64,000 nt of DNA from Acidimicrobiales bacterium (GTDB lineage Bacteria; Actinomycetota; Acidimicrobiia; Acidimicrobiales; DATDAH01). The notes beneath the pieces were generated by a model that saw only the letters and a program-made list of their open reading frames with translations, made no database searches and was not told the DNA's origin. Positions 7,132-30,776 of this stretch are shown piece after piece (within the stretch, counting starts at the first letter, position 1; each line of letters starts with the position of its first letter). The DNA lies in assembly GCA_044221555.1 (NCBI GenBank), contig JBGAOY010000015.1:1721-65720 (forward strand), given 5' to 3'. The position numbers were made by a program, and so were the translations under genes.

Positions 7132-8892
7132 TCAACGACGGTCGGCCAGCGCCTCGACCTGCGGGCCCAGCTCGTCCCACAGTGCCTGTGCCATGAGGTG
7201 GGCGCCGGCTTCGTTGGTGTGCACCTCGTCGATGTACAGCTCGTCCTCGTGGCCGTCGAGCGCATGGGAGACGTCGGTCACCTCGTCCGGCAGGCGGTCG
7301 ATGACACTGGGGTCCCAGCCTGCTTTCGTGGGCTGCCAGAAGAAGTGGACCGGGGTGTCGCTGTCCGCCAGGACGGCGTCGGTGAGGTCGATCGCCCGGC
7401 GGTAGATGCCGAGGGCGGCGTCCCGACGCTGGTCAGGAGTCGCGGTGGAGGTGTACGCGCCCTCGCCCACCGGGTCACCACCACGGAATCGATCGACCAG
7501 GCGGCCCACGGCGCTGAAGCGCGCGTAGGCGGCACCGACCTCGCGGAGCCCCGCCGTGACGGTCTGGGAGGTCTCGTGCTCGTCGTGGTACTCGCCGGCG
7601 AGCTGGTTGACCGTGCCCGCGCCCAGGTGGGTCGGATCGGTCGAGTACCCGGTGTTCTGGACGAGGAACTCGTTGAACCCGTCGTAGAACACCACCAGGT
7701 CGTACTCCTCGCCGGCGGCCACGAGGCGCTCGAGGTACTGGAACTCCTGCCAGCTGACCCAGCCGGGCAGGCCGTAGTTGTGCACTTCCACGGGCACGCC
7801 GGCGTCCTCGGCGAGGCGGGCGAACTCCGACGGGATGGTGTGCTCGTCGCGCTGACCCACGCCGAACATCACCGAGCCGCCCAGGAAGGCGACCCGCAGT
7901 GGGCTCCGGCCGTCGGGGACCGGCGGTTCGTAGGACACGCGCTCGGTGTCGGTCGCGTTGAGGTACCGGCTCTCGAACGCGTGCGGGCCGTTGACCAGGT
8001 ACGGGACGTAGGCCTCGTCGCCCAGTTGGTAGTCGGTGAGCGCCTCGCCGTACTCGGCGGCCCACGGCTCGGACGCGATCGGGGGGGCGGCCATCGTCGT
8101 GCGGACGGCGTCTTCGACGTAGCGCTCGACCTCGCCCCGGTCATCGGGCGGCAGCCCCGCGAGCGTGAGGACGCTGCCGACCACCAGATCCACGATGACC
8201 AGCGCCGCGACCACGGCCAGCGCGGTCACGAGGCGTGGGCGCCGCCGGCGCCACCGACGGGGGGGACGCTGGGGATCCGCGGTGCCGGGCGACGCGGCAG
8301 CGATGTCCTCGCCGCCGGGGCTCGGGGCGGCGGCGGTGCCCTCGGCAGCATCGACGGCATCGTCCTCGGCCGCTGGCTCGGCCTCGACCTCGACCGCTGG
8401 CTCGACCCCTGGCTCGACCCCTGGCGCGGGCTCCTCCACGAGCCGTGCCCGTTGCGGCTCACGTCCGAACATCCGCGGCGCGGCGTCCGTCCGGCTCAGG
8501 GCCTCCCGGGGGATCCAGCCGTGGCCGGCCAGGCCCCTCGGCCGACCCAGGGGCCGCCGGAACACGAGCCCCACCAGCGACACGGGGACGATCACCAGGG
8601 CGAACACCACGGTGAGGAGCGTCCAGGACAGCACCAGCCCCACCACGTGGGCGAACGCGTGAGCGCTGCGGGCCAGGCCTGCCTCGAGGCGGTGGGCGAA
8701 GCCCGGCGAGAGCAGGCTGGCCTGGAACAGCGCGAACACCGCGGCGATCAGTGCCAGTGCAGCCACGAGGTGGCCGGTGAGCAGGAGCGCGACGATGACG
8801 CCGAGCGCGCCCAGCGGCGCGAGGCGTACGAAGACGCGCTCGCGCCGGCCCGACGTCGGGGCATCGAGCGGCCCCCAGCCGGGGGCGCTCAC
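7132..8892 (-). CDS. Membrane-anchored SGNH/GDSL-fold protein with SxtJ-like N-terminus (paralogue 2)
   Basis: AFLGGSVMFG, FYDGFNE, IDEVHTNE; clear similarity to 4818-6560. Confidence 0.75.
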   Translation of the reverse strand: MSAPGWGPLDAPTSGRRERVFVRLAPLGALGVIVALLLTGHLVAALALIAAVFALFQASLLSPGFAHRLEAGLARSAHAFAHVVGLVLSWTLLTVVFALVIVPVSLVGLVFRRPLGRPRGLAGHGWIPREALSRTDAAPRMFGREPQRARLVEEPAPGVEPGVEPAVEVEAEPAAEDDAVDAAEGTAAAPSPGGEDIAAASPGTADPQRPPRRWRRRRPRLVTALAVVAALVIVDLVVGSVLTLAGLPPDDRGEVERYVEDAVRTTMAAPPIASEPWAAEYGEALTDYQLGDEAYVPYLVNGPHAFESRYLNATDTERVSYEPPVPDGRSPLRVAFLGGSVMFGVGQRDEHTIPSEFARLAEDAGVPVEVHNYGLPGWVSWQEFQYLERLVAAGEEYDLVVFYDGFNEFLVQNTGYSTDPTHLGAGTVNQLAGEYHDEHETSQTVTAGLREVGAAYARFSAVGRLVDRFRGGDPVGEGAYTSTATPDQRRDAALGIYRRAIDLTDAVLADSDTPVHFFWQPTKAGWDPSVIDRLPDEVTDVSHALDGHEDELYIDEVHTNEAGAHLMAQALWDELGPQVEALADRR

Positions 8893-8900
8893 GAGGGTCG

Positions 8901-10637
8901 TCAGATGCTCATCTCCACCGTCGCCGGACGCGGCTCATCCGGCTCATTGTCGCCCAAGTGGGTCGGGTCGGGCCGGGCACCCCCGTCCTGGTCGCGGTGG
9001 CGGTTCCTCGTGACCAGCCCTGCCGCGAGCACCGCGACCAGTGGGACCACCGGGTAGCGGTAGTGGGGATCGATGACCCCCACGAGGATGGCGAGGGTGT
9101 ACAGCACGATCGGCACCCAGATCGGCAGGGCGCGTCGGCAGGCGGGCACGAGGGCCAGGCCGAGCAGCGCCAGGGCACCGACGAGCCACCCCCACAGGTT
9201 CGCGAGGTCGCCGAGGGGACCGTGCCAGCGCCCGGCCCAGCCGGGCTCCGAGTAGTTGCGGGCGCCGTCCACCACCCGGCCCTCGCTGCTCCAGGTCTCC
9301 CACAGCTTGTCGCTGTACAGCCGGGTCGCCTGCACGGGGTGCGTCGTCGCCCACCGCACCGCCTCGCCCATGGCCCTCCGGTACCAATGGGCCTCGTCGG
9401 GCTCGGTGAGCTCGACGCCCGGCGGCGGGGCGGCCCCGAGCCGCTCGAGCATCGGGAGGAAGCGGCGGTCGTCGAAGGGAGAGCCGCCGTAGCAGTCGGC
9501 TTGGATCCGGGGGCTCAGCTTGTCGGGCTCCCAGAGCGGCAGGGCATCGTCGTGGTTGCCGAAGCAGGCCGCGCCGGCGTTGTTGGTGGACGCGGGGCTC
9601 CAGACGCCGACCTGCACGCCGTTGCGGATGGTCCACGGCACCAGGACGACGAGGGTGGCCAGGGCCACGAGCCCCGTCGCCCGGGCCACGCCCCGCCAGG
9701 CGCCGGTCTGGGCGCGGATGGCCAGCGCCGGCGCGGCGAGGCCGATGAGGCCGGGGCTGCGCACCAGGAACGCCGCGCCGGCGAGCAGGCCCACCAGGAG
9801 CCAGCGCCGATGCCACCCGTCGCGTGCCCCCACCGTGGCCAGCGCCAGGATGCCGAGGAGGAACGGTGTGAACGCGGTCTCGCTGTGGGCCGTCGAGGTC
9901 CAGTACACGAGCGCGGGGCACAGGGCCACCAGCCAGGCGGCGGTGTTGCGGGCCTGCGGTCCGATCCACCGCGCCGCCAGGAAGCCCGACAGGACGATGG
10001 TGATCGTCCCCGCGACCACGTTCACCAGCGACGCCACGAACGCGGCGCCGGCCCAGCCCGTCTCCCGGCCCACCCACACGAACGGGGCCAGCAGCGCCGG
10101 GTAGCCGGGGGGCCAGTAGGCGCTCGGGCCGCCCCCGCCGCCGAACCGGGGGCTGATCCCCTCGGTGAGGCCGATGGCGATGCGCAGGTACTCGGCCGGG
10201 TCGCGCAGCTCGTTCGGCGTCCGGGTGGCCCAGATCACCCAGAGCAGGCGCAGGCCCGCACCGACGACGATTGCAGCGACGAAGCCCGCCCGCCGCGAGG
10301 GCCGCGGCACCCGCGGCCTGGGGATCGACCGGGCCGTGCCCGCGAGCCGTTCCCCGAGGCGTCGACCACCGCCCCGCGAGCCGGACGCGTCCGAGCCGGC
10401 GACGGACGCCGCGACGGTGGTGCTCGCCGCGACGGTGGTGCTCGCCGCGGCCTCCGGGGCCGGCGTGGCGTCCATCGGCCGAGCCGGAGGTGGCGGTGCG
10501 ACGCGACTCGCCGACCGCCTCGCCGCCCGGCGGGCCCGCCACGCGGGCCACCCGAAGGTCACCACCTGGGCCAGGAGCGCCACCCCGACCACGACGGCCA
10601 CCCCAACGGCGAGCCGCTCGCCCAGGGCCGCGGTCAT
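8901..10637 (-). CDS. GT-C-type (ArnT/PMT-like) membrane glycosyltransferase
   Basis: Multi-TM; RDPAEY, AYWPPGYP, SETAF, LVPWTIRN, RYPVVP motifs; TAACGT -10 6 nt before ATG. Confidence 0.7.
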   Translation of the reverse strand: MTAALGERLAVGVAVVVGVALLAQVVTFGWPAWRARRAARRSASRVAPPPPARPMDATPAPEAAASTTVAASTTVAASVAGSDASGSRGGGRRLGERLAGTARSIPRPRVPRPSRRAGFVAAIVVGAGLRLLWVIWATRTPNELRDPAEYLRIAIGLTEGISPRFGGGGGPSAYWPPGYPALLAPFVWVGRETGWAGAAFVASLVNVVAGTITIVLSGFLAARWIGPQARNTAAWLVALCPALVYWTSTAHSETAFTPFLLGILALATVGARDGWHRRWLLVGLLAGAAFLVRSPGLIGLAAPALAIRAQTGAWRGVARATGLVALATLVVLVPWTIRNGVQVGVWSPASTNNAGAACFGNHDDALPLWEPDKLSPRIQADCYGGSPFDDRRFLPMLERLGAAPPPGVELTEPDEAHWYRRAMGEAVRWATTHPVQATRLYSDKLWETWSSEGRVVDGARNYSEPGWAGRWHGPLGDLANLWGWLVGALALLGLALVPACRRALPIWVPIVLYTLAILVGVIDPHYRYPVVPLVAVLAAGLVTRNRHRDQDGGARPDPTHLGDNEPDEPRPATVEMSI

Positions 10638-23668: not shown

Positions 23669-24313
23669 TCAGTTCTCGTCCGCGTCCTCGGTGGGGTCGG
23701 CGGTCCACAGGAAGCGGGCCGACGCGGTCGGGACCGTCGTGTTCGTGAACCCCTCGACCGTGTCGGGGATGTCGCGCAGGGTGAAGACGAACCGGAAGGT
23801 CTGCGCGTCGGGCGACTCGGTGACCGCGAACGCCTCCACGCCCCGTCGGGCGGCCGAGAGCCCGGCCAGCGTCCCTTGGAAGACGGTGCCGGTGGGGGTG
23901 AAGCCGTCGCAGTCGTGGAACGTGCCGCCGGTGCCCCGTTCGACCCGTACGTCGAGCAGCGACGCCAGCGACCCCTCGGCCTCGCTCGACAGGCTCACGG
24001 TCACGGGCAGCACGTTGCCGTCGTAGCTGACCACGATGCAGTCACGCTCGGGTCGGCCGGGGACCATGTCGTCGACGGCGAAGAGCGAGGTCCCGGAGTC
24101 GTCGTCGGTCAACTGGACCGAGCCTGCGGACAACTGGGCGTCGGCGTGCGCGTCGGTCGGCGTCAGCGCGGCCCGCGACCGGGTCACGACCAGGATGCTC
24201 ACGATCAACAGCGCGATCGCGGTGGCCAGGGACCGAGCGGTCGTCCGACCGGTGCTGGCCTCCTCCTCGGCGATGTCGATGGGGCCGTTCTCGCGTTCGA
24301 GGATCCGGCTCAT
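23669..24313 (-). CDS. TasA/CalY-like exported protein with SipW-type signal (paralogue 2)
   Basis: Hydrophobic stretch then SRAALTPT...LSAGSVQLTDDDSGTSLF...MVPG..RDCIVVSYDG; similar to 27705-28289. Confidence 0.7.
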   Translation of the reverse strand: MSRILERENGPIDIAEEEASTGRTTARSLATAIALLIVSILVVTRSRAALTPTDAHADAQLSAGSVQLTDDDSGTSLFAVDDMVPGRPERDCIVVSYDGNVLPVTVSLSSEAEGSLASLLDVRVERGTGGTFHDCDGFTPTGTVFQGTLAGLSAARRGVEAFAVTESPDAQTFRFVFTLRDIPDTVEGFTNTTVPTASARFLWTADPTEDADEN

Positions 24314-24463: not shown

Positions 24464-26920
24464 TCACGCGCGCACCCCCGCGGGGACGCGCGCCTCGAGC
24501 GGCGCGGCGGGCACGCCCCCGAGCAGCACCGCCACCTGCTCGGGCGTGGCCGGCCGGTGGAGCAGATAGCCCTGGATGAGGTCGGTGCGCATCTCCCGCA
24601 GCAGCTGGAGCTGCTCCTCGCTCTCGATGCCCTCGGCGATCACCCGCAGCCCGAGATCGTGGGCGAGCCCGACGATGGAGCGCACGATGGCACGGTCGTG
24701 GGTGTCTTCGGAGGCGAGCCCGTCGACGAACACCTTGTCGATCTTCAACACGTCGAGCGGCAGCTCGCGCAAGTGGCGCAGCGACGTCTGGCCCTGTCCG
24801 AAGTCGTCCAGCGCGAGGCGCACCCCACGTGCCCTGAGGTTGCTCATCAGCCCCACCAGCTCGCTCCCCAGCGACACCACGTTCTCCGTGACCTCCAGGA
24901 GCAACGAGGCCGGCGGCATGGCCGTCTCGCCCATGATCCTGTCGAGGTCGGCCGAGAACCCGGGGTGGTTCAGCTGGCTGGGCGACACGTTCACACCCAG
25001 CATGAGGCGGTTCCCGCGGGGCGCCTCGCGCCACAGGGCGTGCGCTCGCATCGCCGTGCGCAGCACCCAGCGGCCGAGGTCGACGATGAGCCCCGACTCC
25101 TCGGCCATCGGGATGAGGGTGCTGGGCGGGATCGCCCCGTGCCGGGGATGGTCCCATCGCACGAGGGCCTCGACGGCGACGATCGACTGGTCGTAGGCGC
25201 GGTAGACGGGCTGGTACACGAGGCGCAGTTGGTCTCGCTGCAAGGCGGTGCGCAGGTCGGCCTCCAGCTGCAGCCGGGTCACCGAGGCGGTGTCGTGGCC
25301 CGCCTGGTAGAGCGCCCAACGGGCCCGGCCACTGGCCTTGGCGCGGTACATGGCCTGGTCGGCCCGGCGGACCAGCTCCGCCGGGTTGGTGAACGGCCGG
25401 GGGGCCATGGCGATGCCCACGCTGGCCGAGATGGCCACCTCGTGGCTGGCCACCACGAACGGCTCGTGGAGCGAGCGCACCAGCCGCTCGGCGACGGTGG
25501 TCGCATCGTCGGGGCCCGCCACCCGGTCGAGCAGCACCACGAATTCGTCGCCTCCGAGCCGGCCCACGATGTCGTCCGCGGAGACGTGGCCCGCCAGCCG
25601 CTGCGCCACCGCGATCAGCAGCTCGTTGCCCGCGTCGTGGCCGAGGCTGTCGTTGACCGGCTTGAAGCGGTCGAGGTCGATGAACAGGACCGCGGCCTGC
25701 TCGTGGGCGGGCGCCGGTCGGGTGACCGACTCCTCGAGGCGCTGGAGGAAGCGGGCCCGGTTGGGCAGGCCCGTGAGCCCGTCGTGGAACGCCCGGTGCT
25801 CGAGCTGGTCGCGCATGGCCCGCTGCTCGGCCACCAGCTGGCCGTTCCGCATGGCCACCCCCGCCTGCGCGGCCAGCAGCTCGAGGCACTCGTACTGCGC
25901 GGTCGACACGTGGGCGCCGGCGCGCGCGCCGGCCCGCAGCGACGCCGATGCGCCCAGGGCGTGGAGGGGGCTGGCCGCCACCACCTCGAGCCCGTGGGCA
26001 TCCAGGTCGTCGAGCTCGGCGGCCACCTCGCTGGCGCGGTCGGTGACCATCGTGCGGTGGGTCTCGGCGGCGGCCACCGCACCACCGGCCGGACGTTCCG
26101 GGGCGGGAAGGGTCAGCTCGCCGGCGGACTGCGCCCCGGTGACGAACCACTCGCCGGAGGGGCGTCGCACGGCCAGGTCGACGGTGTCGAATCCCAGGCC
26201 CAATGCAGACGTGGTGACCGCGTTGACCACCTCGACCTCCAGGCTGGTCACCCGGTGGCCGGCCTCGGCCACGGTCTCCAGGAGATGGCCCCGTTCCGAG
26301 GCGCGCTCCCAGGCGTCGCGTTGGCCCCGGATGTCGATCAGCAGCTGCTCGGAGAGGTAGCCGGCAGGGATGGTGACCAGCAGGATGACGCCGATGCGCT
26401 GCACGGCCACCTCGACAGCGACCAGGACGTCGGTCTCCGAGGTCCCGGCGGCGTTGACCATCAACACGAGGTAGGCCAGCGACACCAGCGCCCACACGAC
26501 CATGGCGCCCCGCAGGCGGTAGCGGAGCGCCCCCTCGAGCACCGGCACGACCAACAGCACCCACATCACGTCCCGGCCGGTCACGTCGAGCGCCGTGGCC
26601 AGGGTGAGCACGAGGAAGGCGTCGGCGGAGATCTCGGCCAACGAGAGCACGGCCTGCCGGCGGCGGCTGTCGGCGTGCTCGGCGGCGATCGACACCAGGC
26701 TGATCAGGCCGGCCACACCGGCCAGCAGCAGTCCCACCATCCATCCGGAGAAGGGCAGGGCGGGATCGCCCGGCCCGGGCCGGTACGTCGCGAATTGCAT
26801 GAACAGCAGCGCGGCGGCGATGAACCGCATGCGCCGGAGGGCCGAGCTGATCACCTGGGACGACCGGCGGGGGTCCTCCCGGCCCGCCCGGCCGCCTGCG
26901 CCCGCCTCCGCCTCAGCCAT
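24464..26920 (-). CDS. Membrane GAF-GGDEF-EAL diguanylate cyclase/phosphodiesterase
   Basis: N-terminal TM bundle, DGLTGLPNR, RLGGDEF, VEALVRW, DDFGQG, LKIDK, AEGIE, QGY. Confidence 0.93.
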   Translation of the reverse strand: MAEAEAGAGGRAGREDPRRSSQVISSALRRMRFIAAALLFMQFATYRPGPGDPALPFSGWMVGLLLAGVAGLISLVSIAAEHADSRRRQAVLSLAEISADAFLVLTLATALDVTGRDVMWVLLVVPVLEGALRYRLRGAMVVWALVSLAYLVLMVNAAGTSETDVLVAVEVAVQRIGVILLVTIPAGYLSEQLLIDIRGQRDAWERASERGHLLETVAEAGHRVTSLEVEVVNAVTTSALGLGFDTVDLAVRRPSGEWFVTGAQSAGELTLPAPERPAGGAVAAAETHRTMVTDRASEVAAELDDLDAHGLEVVAASPLHALGASASLRAGARAGAHVSTAQYECLELLAAQAGVAMRNGQLVAEQRAMRDQLEHRAFHDGLTGLPNRARFLQRLEESVTRPAPAHEQAAVLFIDLDRFKPVNDSLGHDAGNELLIAVAQRLAGHVSADDIVGRLGGDEFVVLLDRVAGPDDATTVAERLVRSLHEPFVVASHEVAISASVGIAMAPRPFTNPAELVRRADQAMYRAKASGRARWALYQAGHDTASVTRLQLEADLRTALQRDQLRLVYQPVYRAYDQSIVAVEALVRWDHPRHGAIPPSTLIPMAEESGLIVDLGRWVLRTAMRAHALWREAPRGNRLMLGVNVSPSQLNHPGFSADLDRIMGETAMPPASLLLEVTENVVSLGSELVGLMSNLRARGVRLALDDFGQGQTSLRHLRELPLDVLKIDKVFVDGLASEDTHDRAIVRSIVGLAHDLGLRVIAEGIESEEQLQLLREMRTDLIQGYLLHRPATPEQVAVLLGGVPAAPLEARVPAGVRA

Positions 26921-27704: not shown

Positions 27705-28289
27705 GTGGAGAAGAAGCGGCAGGATCAGGCTCGCCGGGCGTGGCTCTATCGGGGATTGGCGGTCGTGGCCTCGCTGGGCTTCGTGAGCGTCCTCGTGGTC
27801 AGCAGCTCGCGGGCGGCGTTCGTGGACACCACGGACAACGCCACCAACACGTTCAGTGCCGGTGACGTCGTCTTGAACGACGACGACACCGGCAGCGTGC
27901 TGTTCAACGTCGCCAACCTGGCGCCGGGCGACAGCCGGACCCGTTGCATCGCCGTCACCTACACCGGGTCCCTGACCGCCGACGTGCACCTCTACGGGAC
28001 CGTGGGGGGGACCGGCCTGGCCCAGTACCTGGACCTCGACATCGACGTCGGCAGCGGCGGCGACTTCGCCTCCTGCACCGGCTTCGCGTCGTCCTCGACC
28101 CTCTTCAACGGAACGCTCGCGGCCTTCGGTGGCGCGCACACCAACTTCGTCAACGGCCTCGGCGGCTTCGCCGGCGCCACGAACCCGACCACCCGGACCT
28201 ACCGGGTGACGGTGACCCTGCAGGACGTCAACGCCGCCCAGGGCCTGTCGGCGACGGCCGGGTTCACCTGGGAAGCCCAGAACGTCTGA
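27705..28289 (+). CDS. TasA/CalY-like exported protein with SipW-type signal (paralogue 1)
   Basis: Basic n-region, h-region, SRAAFVDTTDNATNTFSAGDVVL matching the AxFxD..N.F.AG SipW-cognate pattern; NLAPGDS, C-terminal FTWEAQN. Confidence 0.8.
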   Translation: MEKKRQDQARRAWLYRGLAVVASLGFVSVLVVSSSRAAFVDTTDNATNTFSAGDVVLNDDDTGSVLFNVANLAPGDSRTRCIAVTYTGSLTADVHLYGTVGGTGLAQYLDLDIDVGSGGDFASCTGFASSSTLFNGTLAAFGGAHTNFVNGLGGFAGATNPTTRTYRVTVTLQDVNAAQGLSATAGFTWEAQNV

Positions 28290-28307: not shown

Positions 28308-30776
28308 GTGGACCGCGGACCCGTGACACCCACGCCTCCGCCCGGGCCCGAGCGGCCCCGTGGAGCGGGCGACGGGCCCGAGCGGCCCCGTGGAGCGGGC
28401 GACGGGCCCGAGCGGCCCCGTGGAGCGGGCGGCGGGCGGGCGCCCACCGTCGGGCGGTTCGCGGCCGGCCTCGTCGGGCTGTTCGTCGTCACCACGGTCG
28501 GCTGGATGGGGCTGTGGGCGGCGGCGACCACGTTCCTCTACGGCTCGGTGCCGGTGGTGGTGTCGTCGGGGTCGATGGCCCCCGCCCTCGACGTGGGCGA
28601 CCTGGTGGTGGTCGAGCCGTACCACGGGCAGGGCATCCACACCGGCACCGTGGTGGTGTTCGACGACCAGGCTGCGGGCCGATCGACCATCCACCGTGTG
28701 GTGAAGGTGAAGGACGACGGCACCTTCACCACACGCGGCGATGCCAACCCCGTCGCCGACTCGACGCCGCTCGAGCTCTCTGAGGTCGATGCCTCGGGTC
28801 GATTCCTGCTGCCCCGCATGGGCCTTCCGATCGTGTGGGCCCAACAGGGCCGCTGGTTGCTGGTGGTGCTGGCGCTGGCCGGCCTGGTGCTCGCGGTGTG
28901 GCTGGCCCGGTTCGCGTTGCTCGACATCCACGACCCCTGGCTGGCCGGCACGGTGCCCGAGCCGGGCACGGGGCCCACCCTGCCGCAGCGCCTCGTCGAC
29001 GCGCTGGAGCGGGCGCGGGTCACGATCGGTGAGGTGGGGGTGCCCCGGGGGCTGGCCCATGTGGCCCGCCGGCGGACGGCCGAGGTCGCGGCGGTGCTGT
29101 TGGCCGTCGTCCTCGCCCACGCCACGGTCACCGCGTACGCCGCCTTCGCCGACACCACGGCGAACGGCCCCAACCAGTTCGCCGCCGACACGCTCACGCC
29201 CCCGAGTGGACTGTCGGTGGCCGCCTCGGGGTGTGGGGGCGCGTCGGCCATCGTCGAGGTCGACTCAGCGACGGCCGTGAACTCCGCCAGCGGCGCCAGC
29301 GTCGTCGTCAGCCGTCCCGCCACCGCGCAGGTGGGCAACCTCCTGGTGGCGCAGGTCGCGTTCCACACGCACAGCTTCGTGGGAACGATCAGCCCGCCCT
29401 CGGGGTGGACGACCGTCCGGGTGGACAACGACAGCAACCACGAGATCCAGGGGGTGTTCTGGAAGTTCGTGTCGGCCTCCGAGCCGGCGACCTACACCTT
29501 CACCAACACCACCGCGGACACCGGCCGGGAGGGCTCGGGCGGGATCGTCGCCTATGACGGTGTCGACACCGTCACGCCGATCGACGCGCATGGTGCCACC
29601 GTGTACCCCGCGGGCGGGTCGTCCATCACGGCTCCCTCCCTCAACACGACCGTGCCCGGCACCCGGCTGCTCACCCTCGTCGGCCAGCGGGCCAATGGGC
29701 CGGTGACTCCGCCCACCGGCATGACCGAGCGCTTCGAGGTCACGTCGAGCAACCAGAACCTGGTCGAGTTCTCGGACCAAGCCGTCTCCGCCGCCGGCGC
29801 CACCGGAACCCGCACCGCGACGTCGGCGGACAACGGCTCGTCGGTGGCCCAGTCGGTGGCGCTCCGCCCGCTCCAGGTCGCCAGCGTGGGCTCGGCGGGG
29901 GTGGGCAGCGCGACCAACGGCGACACCTCGACGATCTCGCTGCCGGTCCCTGCGGCCGCCGCCGCCGGTGACGTGCTGGTCGCCCACGTGGTGCTGCACA
30001 GCCACGTGTTCGGTGCGAATCCTCTGCCGGCGCCGTCGGGGTGGACGCGGGTCCGCACCGACAGCGACAACAGCCACGTGATCGCGGCGGTGTTCTGGCG
30101 GGTGGCCACGGGCTCCGAGCCGGCGTCCTACACGTTCACCAACAACTCGGGGGACACCACCCAGCAGGCCACCGGGGCGATCATGGCCTACCGCGGTGTG
30201 GACACGGCCCATCCCATCGACGCCCACGCGGGGACGACCGCGGTCACCGGCGCCGACACGCTGGTCGCCCCCTCGGTCACCACGACACGGCCCAACACGC
30301 GCCTGCTCTCGCTCGTGGGCGTCTACGGCAACGACCAGGGCCCGGCCACGCCACCGGCATCGATGACCGAGCGCTACGAGGACACCGTGGTGAGCGAGCT
30401 GTCTGTGGTCGAGACGCTGGGCGAGGCCGCCGACGAGCGCCTGCCGGCCGCCGGTGCCAGTGGCACCCGCTCGACGACCGTTCCCAACACGGACACGTCG
30501 GTGGCCCAGGCCATCGCCCTTCGACCCGACACCGGTGAGCCGAACGCCGACCTGACGTGGACGCCGTCGGCGTCGGCGGCAGTGGACGGCTACATCGTCG
30601 AGCGGTGGATCGGGGGAGTGCTGGACAGCTCGACCACGGTCACCCCGGGCACCGCTTCGTCGTACACCGACGGCCCCCTCGTGTCGGGCACGACCTACAC
30701 CTACCGGGTGATCGCCACGGCTGGGAACTGGCGATCGGCGCCGCTGACCACCACGTACACGCCGGCCAACTGCTGA
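28308..30776 (+). CDS. SipW-type signal peptidase fused to a SipW-signal-bearing adhesin-like protein (two ~210-aa beta repeats within an FN3-like domain)
   Basis: VVSSGSMAP, TIHRVV, TRGDAN; internal TAYAAFADTTANGPNQFAAD; two repeats each ending ALRP; C-terminal LTWTPS..GYIVER..YTYRVIATAGNWRS. Confidence 0.8.
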   Translation: MDRGPVTPTPPPGPERPRGAGDGPERPRGAGDGPERPRGAGGGRAPTVGRFAAGLVGLFVVTTVGWMGLWAAATTFLYGSVPVVVSSGSMAPALDVGDLVVVEPYHGQGIHTGTVVVFDDQAAGRSTIHRVVKVKDDGTFTTRGDANPVADSTPLELSEVDASGRFLLPRMGLPIVWAQQGRWLLVVLALAGLVLAVWLARFALLDIHDPWLAGTVPEPGTGPTLPQRLVDALERARVTIGEVGVPRGLAHVARRRTAEVAAVLLAVVLAHATVTAYAAFADTTANGPNQFAADTLTPPSGLSVAASGCGGASAIVEVDSATAVNSASGASVVVSRPATAQVGNLLVAQVAFHTHSFVGTISPPSGWTTVRVDNDSNHEIQGVFWKFVSASEPATYTFTNTTADTGREGSGGIVAYDGVDTVTPIDAHGATVYPAGGSSITAPSLNTTVPGTRLLTLVGQRANGPVTPPTGMTERFEVTSSNQNLVEFSDQAVSAAGATGTRTATSADNGSSVAQSVALRPLQVASVGSAGVGSATNGDTSTISLPVPAAAAAGDVLVAHVVLHSHVFGANPLPAPSGWTRVRTDSDNSHVIAAVFWRVATGSEPASYTFTNNSGDTTQQATGAIMAYRGVDTAHPIDAHAGTTAVTGADTLVAPSVTTTRPNTRLLSLVGVYGNDQGPATPPASMTERYEDTVVSELSVVETLGEAADERLPAAGASGTRSTTVPNTDTSVAQAIALRPDTGEPNADLTWTPSASAAVDGYIVERWIGGVLDSSTTVTPGTASSYTDGPLVSGTTYTYRVIATAGNWRSAPLTTTYTPANC
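28344..28433 (+). repeat. 3 x 30-bp tandem repeat encoding GPERPRGAGD
   Basis: GGGCCCGAGCGGCCCCGTGGAGCGGGCGAC at 28344, 28374, 28404 (last ends GGC). Confidence 0.95.

Follow-up and report, generated by a model that had tools for sequence, protein, structure and literature searches.

The last gene of a five-gene cassette in a 64,000-nucleotide (nt) stretch of DNA from an Acidimicrobiales bacterium (assembly GCA_044221555.1, contig JBGAOY010000015.1; "the window" below means this whole stretch) encodes a SipW-type signal peptidase and a predicted substrate of such an enzyme in one open reading frame (ORF). The remainder of the cassette consists of two TasA/camelysin-like subunits (A and B), a second, stand-alone SipW-type peptidase and a membrane GGDEF-EAL protein; TasA-like A and the fusion are divergent from the other three genes. 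The junctions of all three cassette substrates are of the SipW type (SSSRA↓AFVDTTDNATNTFSAG in A, TRSRA↓ALTPTD... in B and TAYA↓AFADTTANGPNQFAAD in the fusion, with the arrow at the predicted cut). The cassette is syntenic in the loci L005, L006, L008 and L009 and also in L007, where the flanking genes differ, and therefore behaves as a module. In all relatives' loci examined, this lineage has the fusion immediately behind a TasA-like gene within this one conserved cassette. On the minus strand, the GGDEF-EAL gene begins before the stand-alone sipW has ended, with 8 nt shared (26913-26920), and this arrangement suggests that cyclic di-GMP (c-di-GMP) turnover is translationally coupled with the stand-alone peptidase.

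The fusion is laid out as a first transmembrane helix (TM1), the SipW peptidase, a second transmembrane helix (TM2), a cytoplasmic linker, an internal signal, a TasA-like strand and a split fibronectin type III (FN3) domain with inserts (Table 1). Its true start is probably the GTG at 28323, because relatives begin "MTP..." at the residue aligned with codon 6. An initial annotation of the window had proposed an 822-amino-acid (aa) ORF with a transmembrane segment and a SipW catalytic domain, an internal SipW-type signal at about 29075-29190, roughly 540 aa of beta domains behind it and a TasA-like N-terminal strand after the cut. These features were all recovered here: the ORF and catalytic domain by the match to TIGR02228 and hydropathy, the signal as RRRTAEVAAVLLAVVLAHATVTAYA-AFADTTANGPNQFAAD (aa 254-294, nt 29067-29189), the downstream part as all-beta with two repeats plus FN3, and the strand by its in-register identity to TasA-like A. 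The topology prediction called for in that annotation was run by hydropathy and gave TM1, TM2 and a third hydrophobic segment at 260-270, the core of which is only 11 residues long. A full-length AlphaFold2 (AF2) model has a mean predicted local distance difference test score (pLDDT) of 69.8, with both repeats well folded. The copy number of the short tandem repeat in the N-tail varies (three diverged copies in relative P0002, none or one in other relatives) and, judging from these alignments, changes quickly.

Table 1. Coordinates of the fusion gene, its parts and the other genes of the cassette in the window.
Feature	Position (nt)	Strand	Basis or remark
Whole fusion gene	28308..30776	+	Open frame, 822 aa
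30-bp tandem repeat, 3.2 copies, 98% matches (GPERPRGAGD x3)	28343..28437	+	Cytoplasmic N-tail of fusion
TM1, aa 51-78, N-in to out	28458..28541	+	Hydropathy; AF2 helix 48-78
SipW/SEC11-type catalytic domain, aa 79-182	28542..28853	+	TIGR02228, Foldseek
Catalytic residues S89, H129, D145 and D151	S89 28572-28574, H129 28692-28694, D145 28740-28742	+	100% conserved in 28 fusions
TM2, aa 183-205, out to in	28854..28922	+	Hydropathy, AF2
Cytoplasmic linker, aa 206-252	28923..29063	+	D..DPW motif at its start, rest variable
Internal signal peptide, aa 253-278	29064..29141	+	n-region ARRR, 11-aa h-region, c-region HATVTAYA
Predicted cut after A278	29141/29142	+	TAYA↓AF; homology to N-terminal signals of stand-alone modules
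Predicted new N-terminus AFADTTANGPNQFAADTL, aa 279-296	29142..29195	+	Resembles TasA-type donor strand
Semi-tryptic N-terminal peptide expected for the predicted passenger, AFADTTANGPNQFAADTLTPPSGL...			
FN3 strand A (TPPSGLSVAASGC), invariant C309	29196..29240	+	Joined fn3 HMM match
Inserted beta domain copy 1, aa 312-522	29241..29873	+	AF2, viral fold matches
Inserted beta domain copy 2, aa 523-741	29874..30530	+	AF2, relatives; absent in ~570-aa relatives
Remainder of FN3, aa 742-822	30531..30776	+	Ends in invariant C822, then stop codon
TasA/camelysin-like subunit A, signal ...VVSSSRA↓AFVDTTDNATNTFSAG	27705..28289	+	PF12389, 29 bits (cut-off 22.5)
Second, stand-alone SipW-type peptidase, 201 aa	26913..27518	-	
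Membrane GGDEF-EAL protein (c-di-GMP turnover)	24464..26920	-	
TasA-like subunit B, signal ...VVTRSRA↓ALTPTD	23669..24313	-	39% identical to A, E 4e-25

Relatives were searched with aa 45-300 as query and candidates limited to 452-1438 aa. This yielded 19 proteins of 516-815 aa that are 47-95% identical over the peptidase, linker and internal signal, and a second search added about 15 further relatives of ~780 aa, some of them named "signal peptidase I" by JGI. The close fusion family comes from metagenome-assembled genomes (MAGs) of Microthrixaceae, Iamiaceae and other Acidimicrobiales, the only order returned by the close-alignment genome search; an Ilumatobacter MAG contributes a more distant fusion (P0153). 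No relative has a stop between the two halves, and the frame is continuous in more than 30 independent assemblies (NCBI, ENA, JGI and Logan among their sources), which answers the concern of the initial annotation that two genes might have been merged. The sequences thus support a fusion that is genuine and under selection. An alignment of 28 full-length fusions underlies the conservation values given below.

The peptidase half matches the NCBIfam model for archaeal/endoplasmic reticulum (ER)-type signal peptidase I (TIGR02228; aa 77-196, 71.3 bits against a cut-off of 51.85) and Pfam Peptidase_S26 (PF10502; 23.9 bits, cut-off 22.9), and Foldseek pairs the fusion model with human SEC11 (7p2q_A) at probability 1.00 and 32% identity. 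Its catalytic motifs carry His, not Lys (S89 in GSM, H129 in IHRV, D145 and D151 in GDAN..D), and both hydropathy and the AF2 helices place membrane anchors on either side of the catalytic domain, as in SipW. The score against the Bacillus SipW equivalog NF046067 (38.5 bits) lies below the cut-off of 190. On sequence criteria the peptidase half is a SipW-type enzyme and not an orthologue of Bacillus SipW. The linker behind it (aa 206-252) is the least conserved segment of the family, at 0.53. A cytoplasmic R[WFY]A..[DN]PW motif after TM2 was considered as a fusion-specific mark and rejected, since it occurs in 31 of 75 fusion-sized and 25 of 70 stand-alone-sized representatives (p = 0.5). A third SipW-type gene lies elsewhere in the same genome (G000:C44:371263-371604 in L001; TIGR02228, 77.6 bits).

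Conservation in the internal signal is centred on the predicted cut site. T275, A276, A279 and F280 (positions -4, -3, +1 and +2) are conserved in every aligned fusion and A278 (-1) in 96%, while the h-region, c-region and linker drift. Two sub-clades can be told apart by their c-regions (AHATVTAYA↓AF and LASSRTAWA↓AF), and both retain Ala at -3, an aromatic residue at -2, Ala at -1 and +1, and Phe at +2. This small-aromatic-Ala↓Ala-Phe pattern is that of Bacillus subtilis TasA, where Phe at P2' makes the protein a poor substrate of LepB and a substrate of SipW (PMC10269814). The segment also has the n-h-c features of a SipW-cognate signal, with small residues at -3 and -1, Ala-Phe at +1 and +2, and a SipW encoded alongside. 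The R255-R256 pair is invariant (RRR in this protein) and lies on the cytoplasmic side of the short h-region, which would leave cut site and catalytic domain facing the same side of the membrane. Judged by the positive-inside rule, the predicted topology, with the N-tail and the RRR in the cytoplasm, is free of contradictions.

Stand-alone homologues of the C-terminal module begin with the same signal (P0052, P0079, P0082, P0074, P0056, P0043 and P0040). In P0052 the signal ends ...PAASA and the junction reads ...AVLAVLVAALMLPAASA↓AFSATTTNPANTLSADRLLPPSGL...C...TPSC; P0074 comes from a Blastococcus MAG, and P0040 comprises two repeats in 565 aa. Contig L011 carries the same cassette with the module (P0043) and the second SipW as separate genes, and its stand-alone SipW, TasA-like A and TasA-like B closely resemble their counterparts in the window by eye. 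Because these stand-alone modules and the unfused cassette bear the same signal, the internal segment is, by the sequence comparison, a bona fide signal peptide by descent that has kept its cleavage determinants. In the L011 locus (7256-9885), the module gene and TasA-like A are separated by the second SipW gene and by two additional Peptidase_M73 paralogues, and the cassette is followed by genes for a Wzy-type polymerase and a glycosyltransferase. We also considered whether the second SipW of the window could be explained by a fused enzyme limited to a single turnover; this is not supported, as the unfused L011 cassette likewise has two SipWs.

A possible route to the fusion is seen in Blastococcus aggregatus DSM 4725, in which the stop of a stand-alone sipW is overlapped by the frame of the downstream substrate gene; from an overlap of this type a fusion could easily arise. 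The locus of this cultured strain (L020:3158-6459) holds two TasA-like genes and a stand-alone SipW. The stand-alone two-repeat protein P0040 lies between lepA and hrcA-dnaJ (L013:426-2123) on a 4-kb contig with no SipW, and therefore not all members of the module family are encoded beside their peptidase.

Directly after the predicted cut, the first 18 residues of the passenger are identical to the mature N-terminus of TasA-like A at 9 positions, in register. The next best match to the TasA-like A N-terminus among 71,343 background 18-mers, drawn from all long ORFs of the window, has 7. A279 and F280 are invariant, T284 and N286 are each conserved in 96% of the fusions, and conservation extends to +18.

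The downstream part of the passenger consists of two repeats of ~210 aa (aa 312-522 and 523-741) and FN3. In the whole protein, Pfam fn3 (PF00041) matches aa 745-815 with 25.6 bits (cut-off 25), and this C-terminal match lacks the first 13-16 positions of the model, starting at position 14 or 17. When aa 293-311 (TL.PPSGL...C) are joined to aa 745-822, the match covers model positions 2-83 with 32.6 bits, compared with positions 17-83 and 29.7 bits without the join; in simpler fusions the corresponding motif L.PPT.LTAT continues directly into FN3-like sequence. Since the joined strand A completes the match and the simpler fusions run uninterrupted, both repeats appear to be inserted in the A-B loop of one FN3 domain. 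C309 and C822, both invariant, are placed such that a putative disulfide between them would staple the split domain together.

A single repeat is modelled by AF2 with a pLDDT of 95.2 and a predicted template modelling (TM) score of 0.92 (m82161aca2a34). It matches no Pfam family, and the single-domain model has no significant match in the PDB (best E 0.03). In a viral structure library, the repeat matches many predicted Caudovirales proteins (TM-score ~0.8, probability 1.0, E down to 3e-12), among them mycobacteriophage proteins annotated as minor tail proteins. Generic FN3/Ig arrays dominated a Foldseek search with the whole model; only the viral library was informative. The ~210-aa domain is also present in other extracellular architectures (RHS-associated, Ig-like and metallophosphoesterase proteins, and proteins named MshQ by their source) and looks like an unannotated domain family that is widespread in bacterial surface proteins. 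The fold held in common with actinophage minor tail proteins suggests that the passenger binds a surface, and it hints at a common ligand of both on actinobacterial envelopes; to the label "adhesin" it lends indirect support only. No sequence or fold homology to TapA was found in the passenger: Pfam and NCBIfam gave no family other than fn3, and fold matches in the PDB were generic or non-significant.

The initial annotation had suspected that similar fusions exist among annotated proteins and suggested a survey of S26 fusions. A phmmer search with the peptidase domain against 1.84 billion cluster representatives was evaluated for its best 150 hits. Eighty-three of these nearest SipW representatives begin with the peptidase and have a length of at least 280 aa; the other 67 are short. 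A hidden Markov model (HMM) of the junction, kept deliberately narrow by building it from this family only, matches 30 of the 83 long representatives at E<1e-3, always just after the peptidase, and 0 of the 67 short proteins. In many of the other long representatives, an A↓AF or A↓AY site is visible below the HMM threshold. The passengers are very diverse, with FG-GAP-like repeats and propellers in proteins of up to 1959 aa. Such fusions are thus common in annotations, where their sources name them "signal peptidase I" and in one case "BamB". Fusions cannot be counted from open-frame lengths in a class-wide genome search, because such lengths are inflated at 73% GC, about the content of the window; the 201-aa SipW, for instance, sits in an open frame of 1629 aa. 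The architecture of enzyme plus substrate in one chain is real, conserved and common. The initial annotation knew of no mechanistic study, and our literature search likewise found no published description of a SipW-substrate fusion.

Some members of the survey depart from the pattern described here. In P0130 (364 aa), two SipW-type domains (GSMEP and SESMTP) with their own membrane segments stand in tandem, a peptidase-peptidase fusion. P0243 (1959 aa), P0255 (1502 aa) and P0173 (1455 aa) begin with a SipW domain that is followed by propeller-like repeats and many FN3 domains; they bear one ~210-aa domain, near the C-terminus in P0255 and mid-chain in P0173, and one of the three is annotated as "BamB". 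The narrow junction HMM has no match in any of these three.

We consider the gene best explained as an enzyme-substrate polyprotein in a c-di-GMP-linked TasA-type fibre cassette, and on balance we think it probable that a peptidase of the SipW type cleaves this polyprotein and sets free a fibre initiator or anchor resembling TapA. The protein would insert N-in, with TM1 placing the SipW domain outside and TM2 leading back to the cytoplasm; after a loop of ~50 aa, the internal signal (RRR, 11-aa h-region, HATVTAYA) would export the remaining chain. The cut after A278 would be made by a SipW-type peptidase, be it the fusion's own domain in cis, a neighbouring copy or the divergent stand-alone SipW. 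Cleavage in cis would be sterically possible because the ~50-aa loop lets the third helix reach the groove beside TM1. The signal peptide would then stay with the peptidase as a third membrane helix and the 544-aa passenger would be freed. Its new N-terminus (AFADTTAN..NQF) would mimic the strand of TasA-like A and be donated in the fashion of TapA to start or end a fibre, and the phage-tail-like beta domains may bind a surface, possibly the cell's own wall. Cleavage, its agent, the docking of the strand and the ligand of the passenger are what we infer here; as far as sequence analysis goes, the reading given in the initial annotation is supported, and every element of it that can be checked holds. 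More tentatively, SipW-passenger fusions may be self-priming fibre machines, in which every peptidase molecule would begin with a cis cut, retain the third helix and so release exactly one strand-bearing initiator or anchor at the place where this enzyme or the partner SipW goes on to process TasA-like subunits; in the present family, the phage-tail-like domains would hold the fibre on the cell's own wall.

Several observations weigh against release of a fibre initiator or anchor. The model of SipW-cognate signals, TIGR04088, has no match to aa 253-311 even at E<=10, and scores the signal of the neighbouring TasA-like A at 14.3 bits, below its cut-off of 19. The AF2 model has low confidence at the junction (pLDDT <50 for aa 273-295), the uncharged stretch of 19 aa at 260-278 is long enough for an uncleaved anchor, and cleavage is a prediction from sequence. 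The post-cut motif is also found in fusions with many unrelated passengers, and could be a determinant of peptidase recognition or export and not a fibre-docking strand. Finally, Pfam and NCBIfam scans of the passenger (aa 279-822) gave no PF12389 match; lacking a TasA-like domain, the passenger could only end a fibre, not extend one.

These points bear on two other explanations, each of which we consider unlikely. In one, the third segment would be a signal-anchor that is left uncut, so that the passenger stays tethered as a base, an adhesin or a substrate-recruiting module, and TAYA↓AF would occupy the active site as a pseudo-substrate or in a regulatory role. The 19 uncharged residues could span the membrane, the case for cleavage comes from sequence, and Streptococcus pyogenes SipA offers a precedent in that it is described as a signal-peptidase-like, non-cleaving factor of pilus assembly (PMC4049620). 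The catalytic residues are, however, fully conserved, and the same segment is an ordinary N-terminal signal in the stand-alone homologues. Conservation also centres on -4, -3, -1, +1 and +2 and not on the hydrophobic core, which has 11 aa against at least 18 in TM1 and TM2.

The other explanation, improbable to a like degree, accepts cleavage and takes the passenger out of the fibre: it would be one of many SipW-dependent secreted or surface proteins, AF..T.N..N.F would be a recognition or export determinant, and the fusion would only guarantee targeting and processing. This agrees with the occurrence of the same junction motif before very different passengers in the survey, and with stand-alone homologues that have no called SipW or TasA-like gene within ~6 kb or anywhere on their short contig (L010, L012 and L013). 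It is less easily reconciled with the invariable position of the fusion behind a TasA-like gene in this lineage, or with conservation to +18, well past what a signal peptidase usually reads; the corresponding residues of TasA and TapA form the interlocking strand (PMC9674648, PMC10151520).

Far less probable is that one frame yields two proteins by a restart of translation in the linker. Here an in-frame GTG at codon 245 is preceded by GAGGTG at a distance of 3 nt, and the product would begin MPRGLAHVARRR... and continue into the signal, which would then be an ordinary N-terminal one. The spacing of 3 nt is short for initiation, residue 245 lacks conservation, no Shine-Dalgarno-like motif precedes any in-frame start in the linkers of L005, L007 and L008, and a stop codon, which would do no harm if the halves were translated separately, has appeared in no relative. 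A conserved internal start was accordingly rejected as a candidate, the motif before GTG-245 being found in this genome and in none of the relatives. A sequencing or assembly error that merged two genes has nothing in its favour and, given the same continuous frame in those more than 30 independent assemblies, is scarcely conceivable.

Signal peptidases are normally seen as stand-alone enzymes, housekeeping or dedicated; here, and commonly, one forms a single chain with a substrate. The name "signal peptidase I" means that annotation hides a class of surface proteins in Acidimicrobiia. If cleavage occurs, the fusion would be a simple natural coupling of one initiator or anchor to one processing enzyme, and would bear on the nucleation and attachment of TasA-type fibres, which are still debated for TapA. 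Should the tentative self-priming reading prove true, no earlier bacterial signal peptidase would have been shown to be synthesized in one polyprotein together with its substrate, and the fusions would provide a general, chaperone-free way to set the number and position of fibre starts. Candidatus Microthrix, of the Microthrixaceae to which some of the close relatives belong, is known for sludge bulking, and fibre and adhesion systems in this family are of practical interest.

Parts of the predicted mechanism have counterparts in known systems. The C-prM polyprotein of flaviviruses contains an internal signal that is cut by ER-type signal peptidase, and the LexA and UmuD peptidases (S24, in clan SF like S26) show that clan SF serine peptidases can cut their own chain. 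A review of the superfamily is given in PMC12984324. LexA and UmuD are soluble proteins with a Ser-Lys dyad, and the Ala-Gly bond that they cut lies in a linker, whereas a membrane-bound Ser-His(-Asp) enzyme would cut a signal peptide here. IGSF1 likewise has a mid-chain signal after membrane segments that is cut by ER-type signal peptidase, splitting the product (PMC5841168). Unlike in IGSF1 and the flaviviruses, which depend on a separate host peptidase complex, the peptidase here is part of the same chain, and the host is a bacterium. S. pyogenes SipA/LepA resembles the fusion as an S26-fold protein dedicated to surface fibre assembly (PMC4049620); SipA is without catalytic residues and not fused to pilin, whereas the catalytic residues are invariant here. 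The sipW-calY1-bc1280-calY2 locus of Bacillus cereus combines, as here, a SipW with two camelysin paralogues (PMC10151520), but has no fusion, and its accessory factor BC1280/CapP is unrelated.

The closest comparison is with tapA-sipW-tasA of B. subtilis, where a dedicated ER-type signal peptidase is also encoded with TasA/camelysin-type subunits (PMC10151520, PMC9674648, PMC10269814) and the cut site likewise carries Ala at P1' followed by Phe at P2'. TapA processed by SipW has A44 as its first residue, and residues 44-57 suffice for biofilm formation; TapA donates this SipW-generated N-terminus to TasA and thereby drives filament formation, and TapA and SipW are equally scarce, their genes overlapping stop to start (PMC10151520). 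In both systems an accessory protein has an N-terminus that resembles the subunit strand, generated by SipW in B. subtilis and predicted here. Unlike in B. subtilis, a single polypeptide here combines an N-terminal peptidase with the accessory protein, whose signal is internal, and the cassette, in an actinobacterium of the Acidimicrobiales, encodes a GGDEF-EAL protein besides two peptidases and two subunits. The accessory part, unlike TapA, is a split FN3 domain with two phage-tail-like domains and has no sequence similarity to TapA; by this analogy, the resemblance to TapA is functional and positional only. What is new is a variant of the TasA/SipW/TapA system in the form of an enzyme-substrate fusion that recurs widely, to which this instance adds the unfused comparators, the anatomy of the split FN3 domain and the link to a phage-tail fold.

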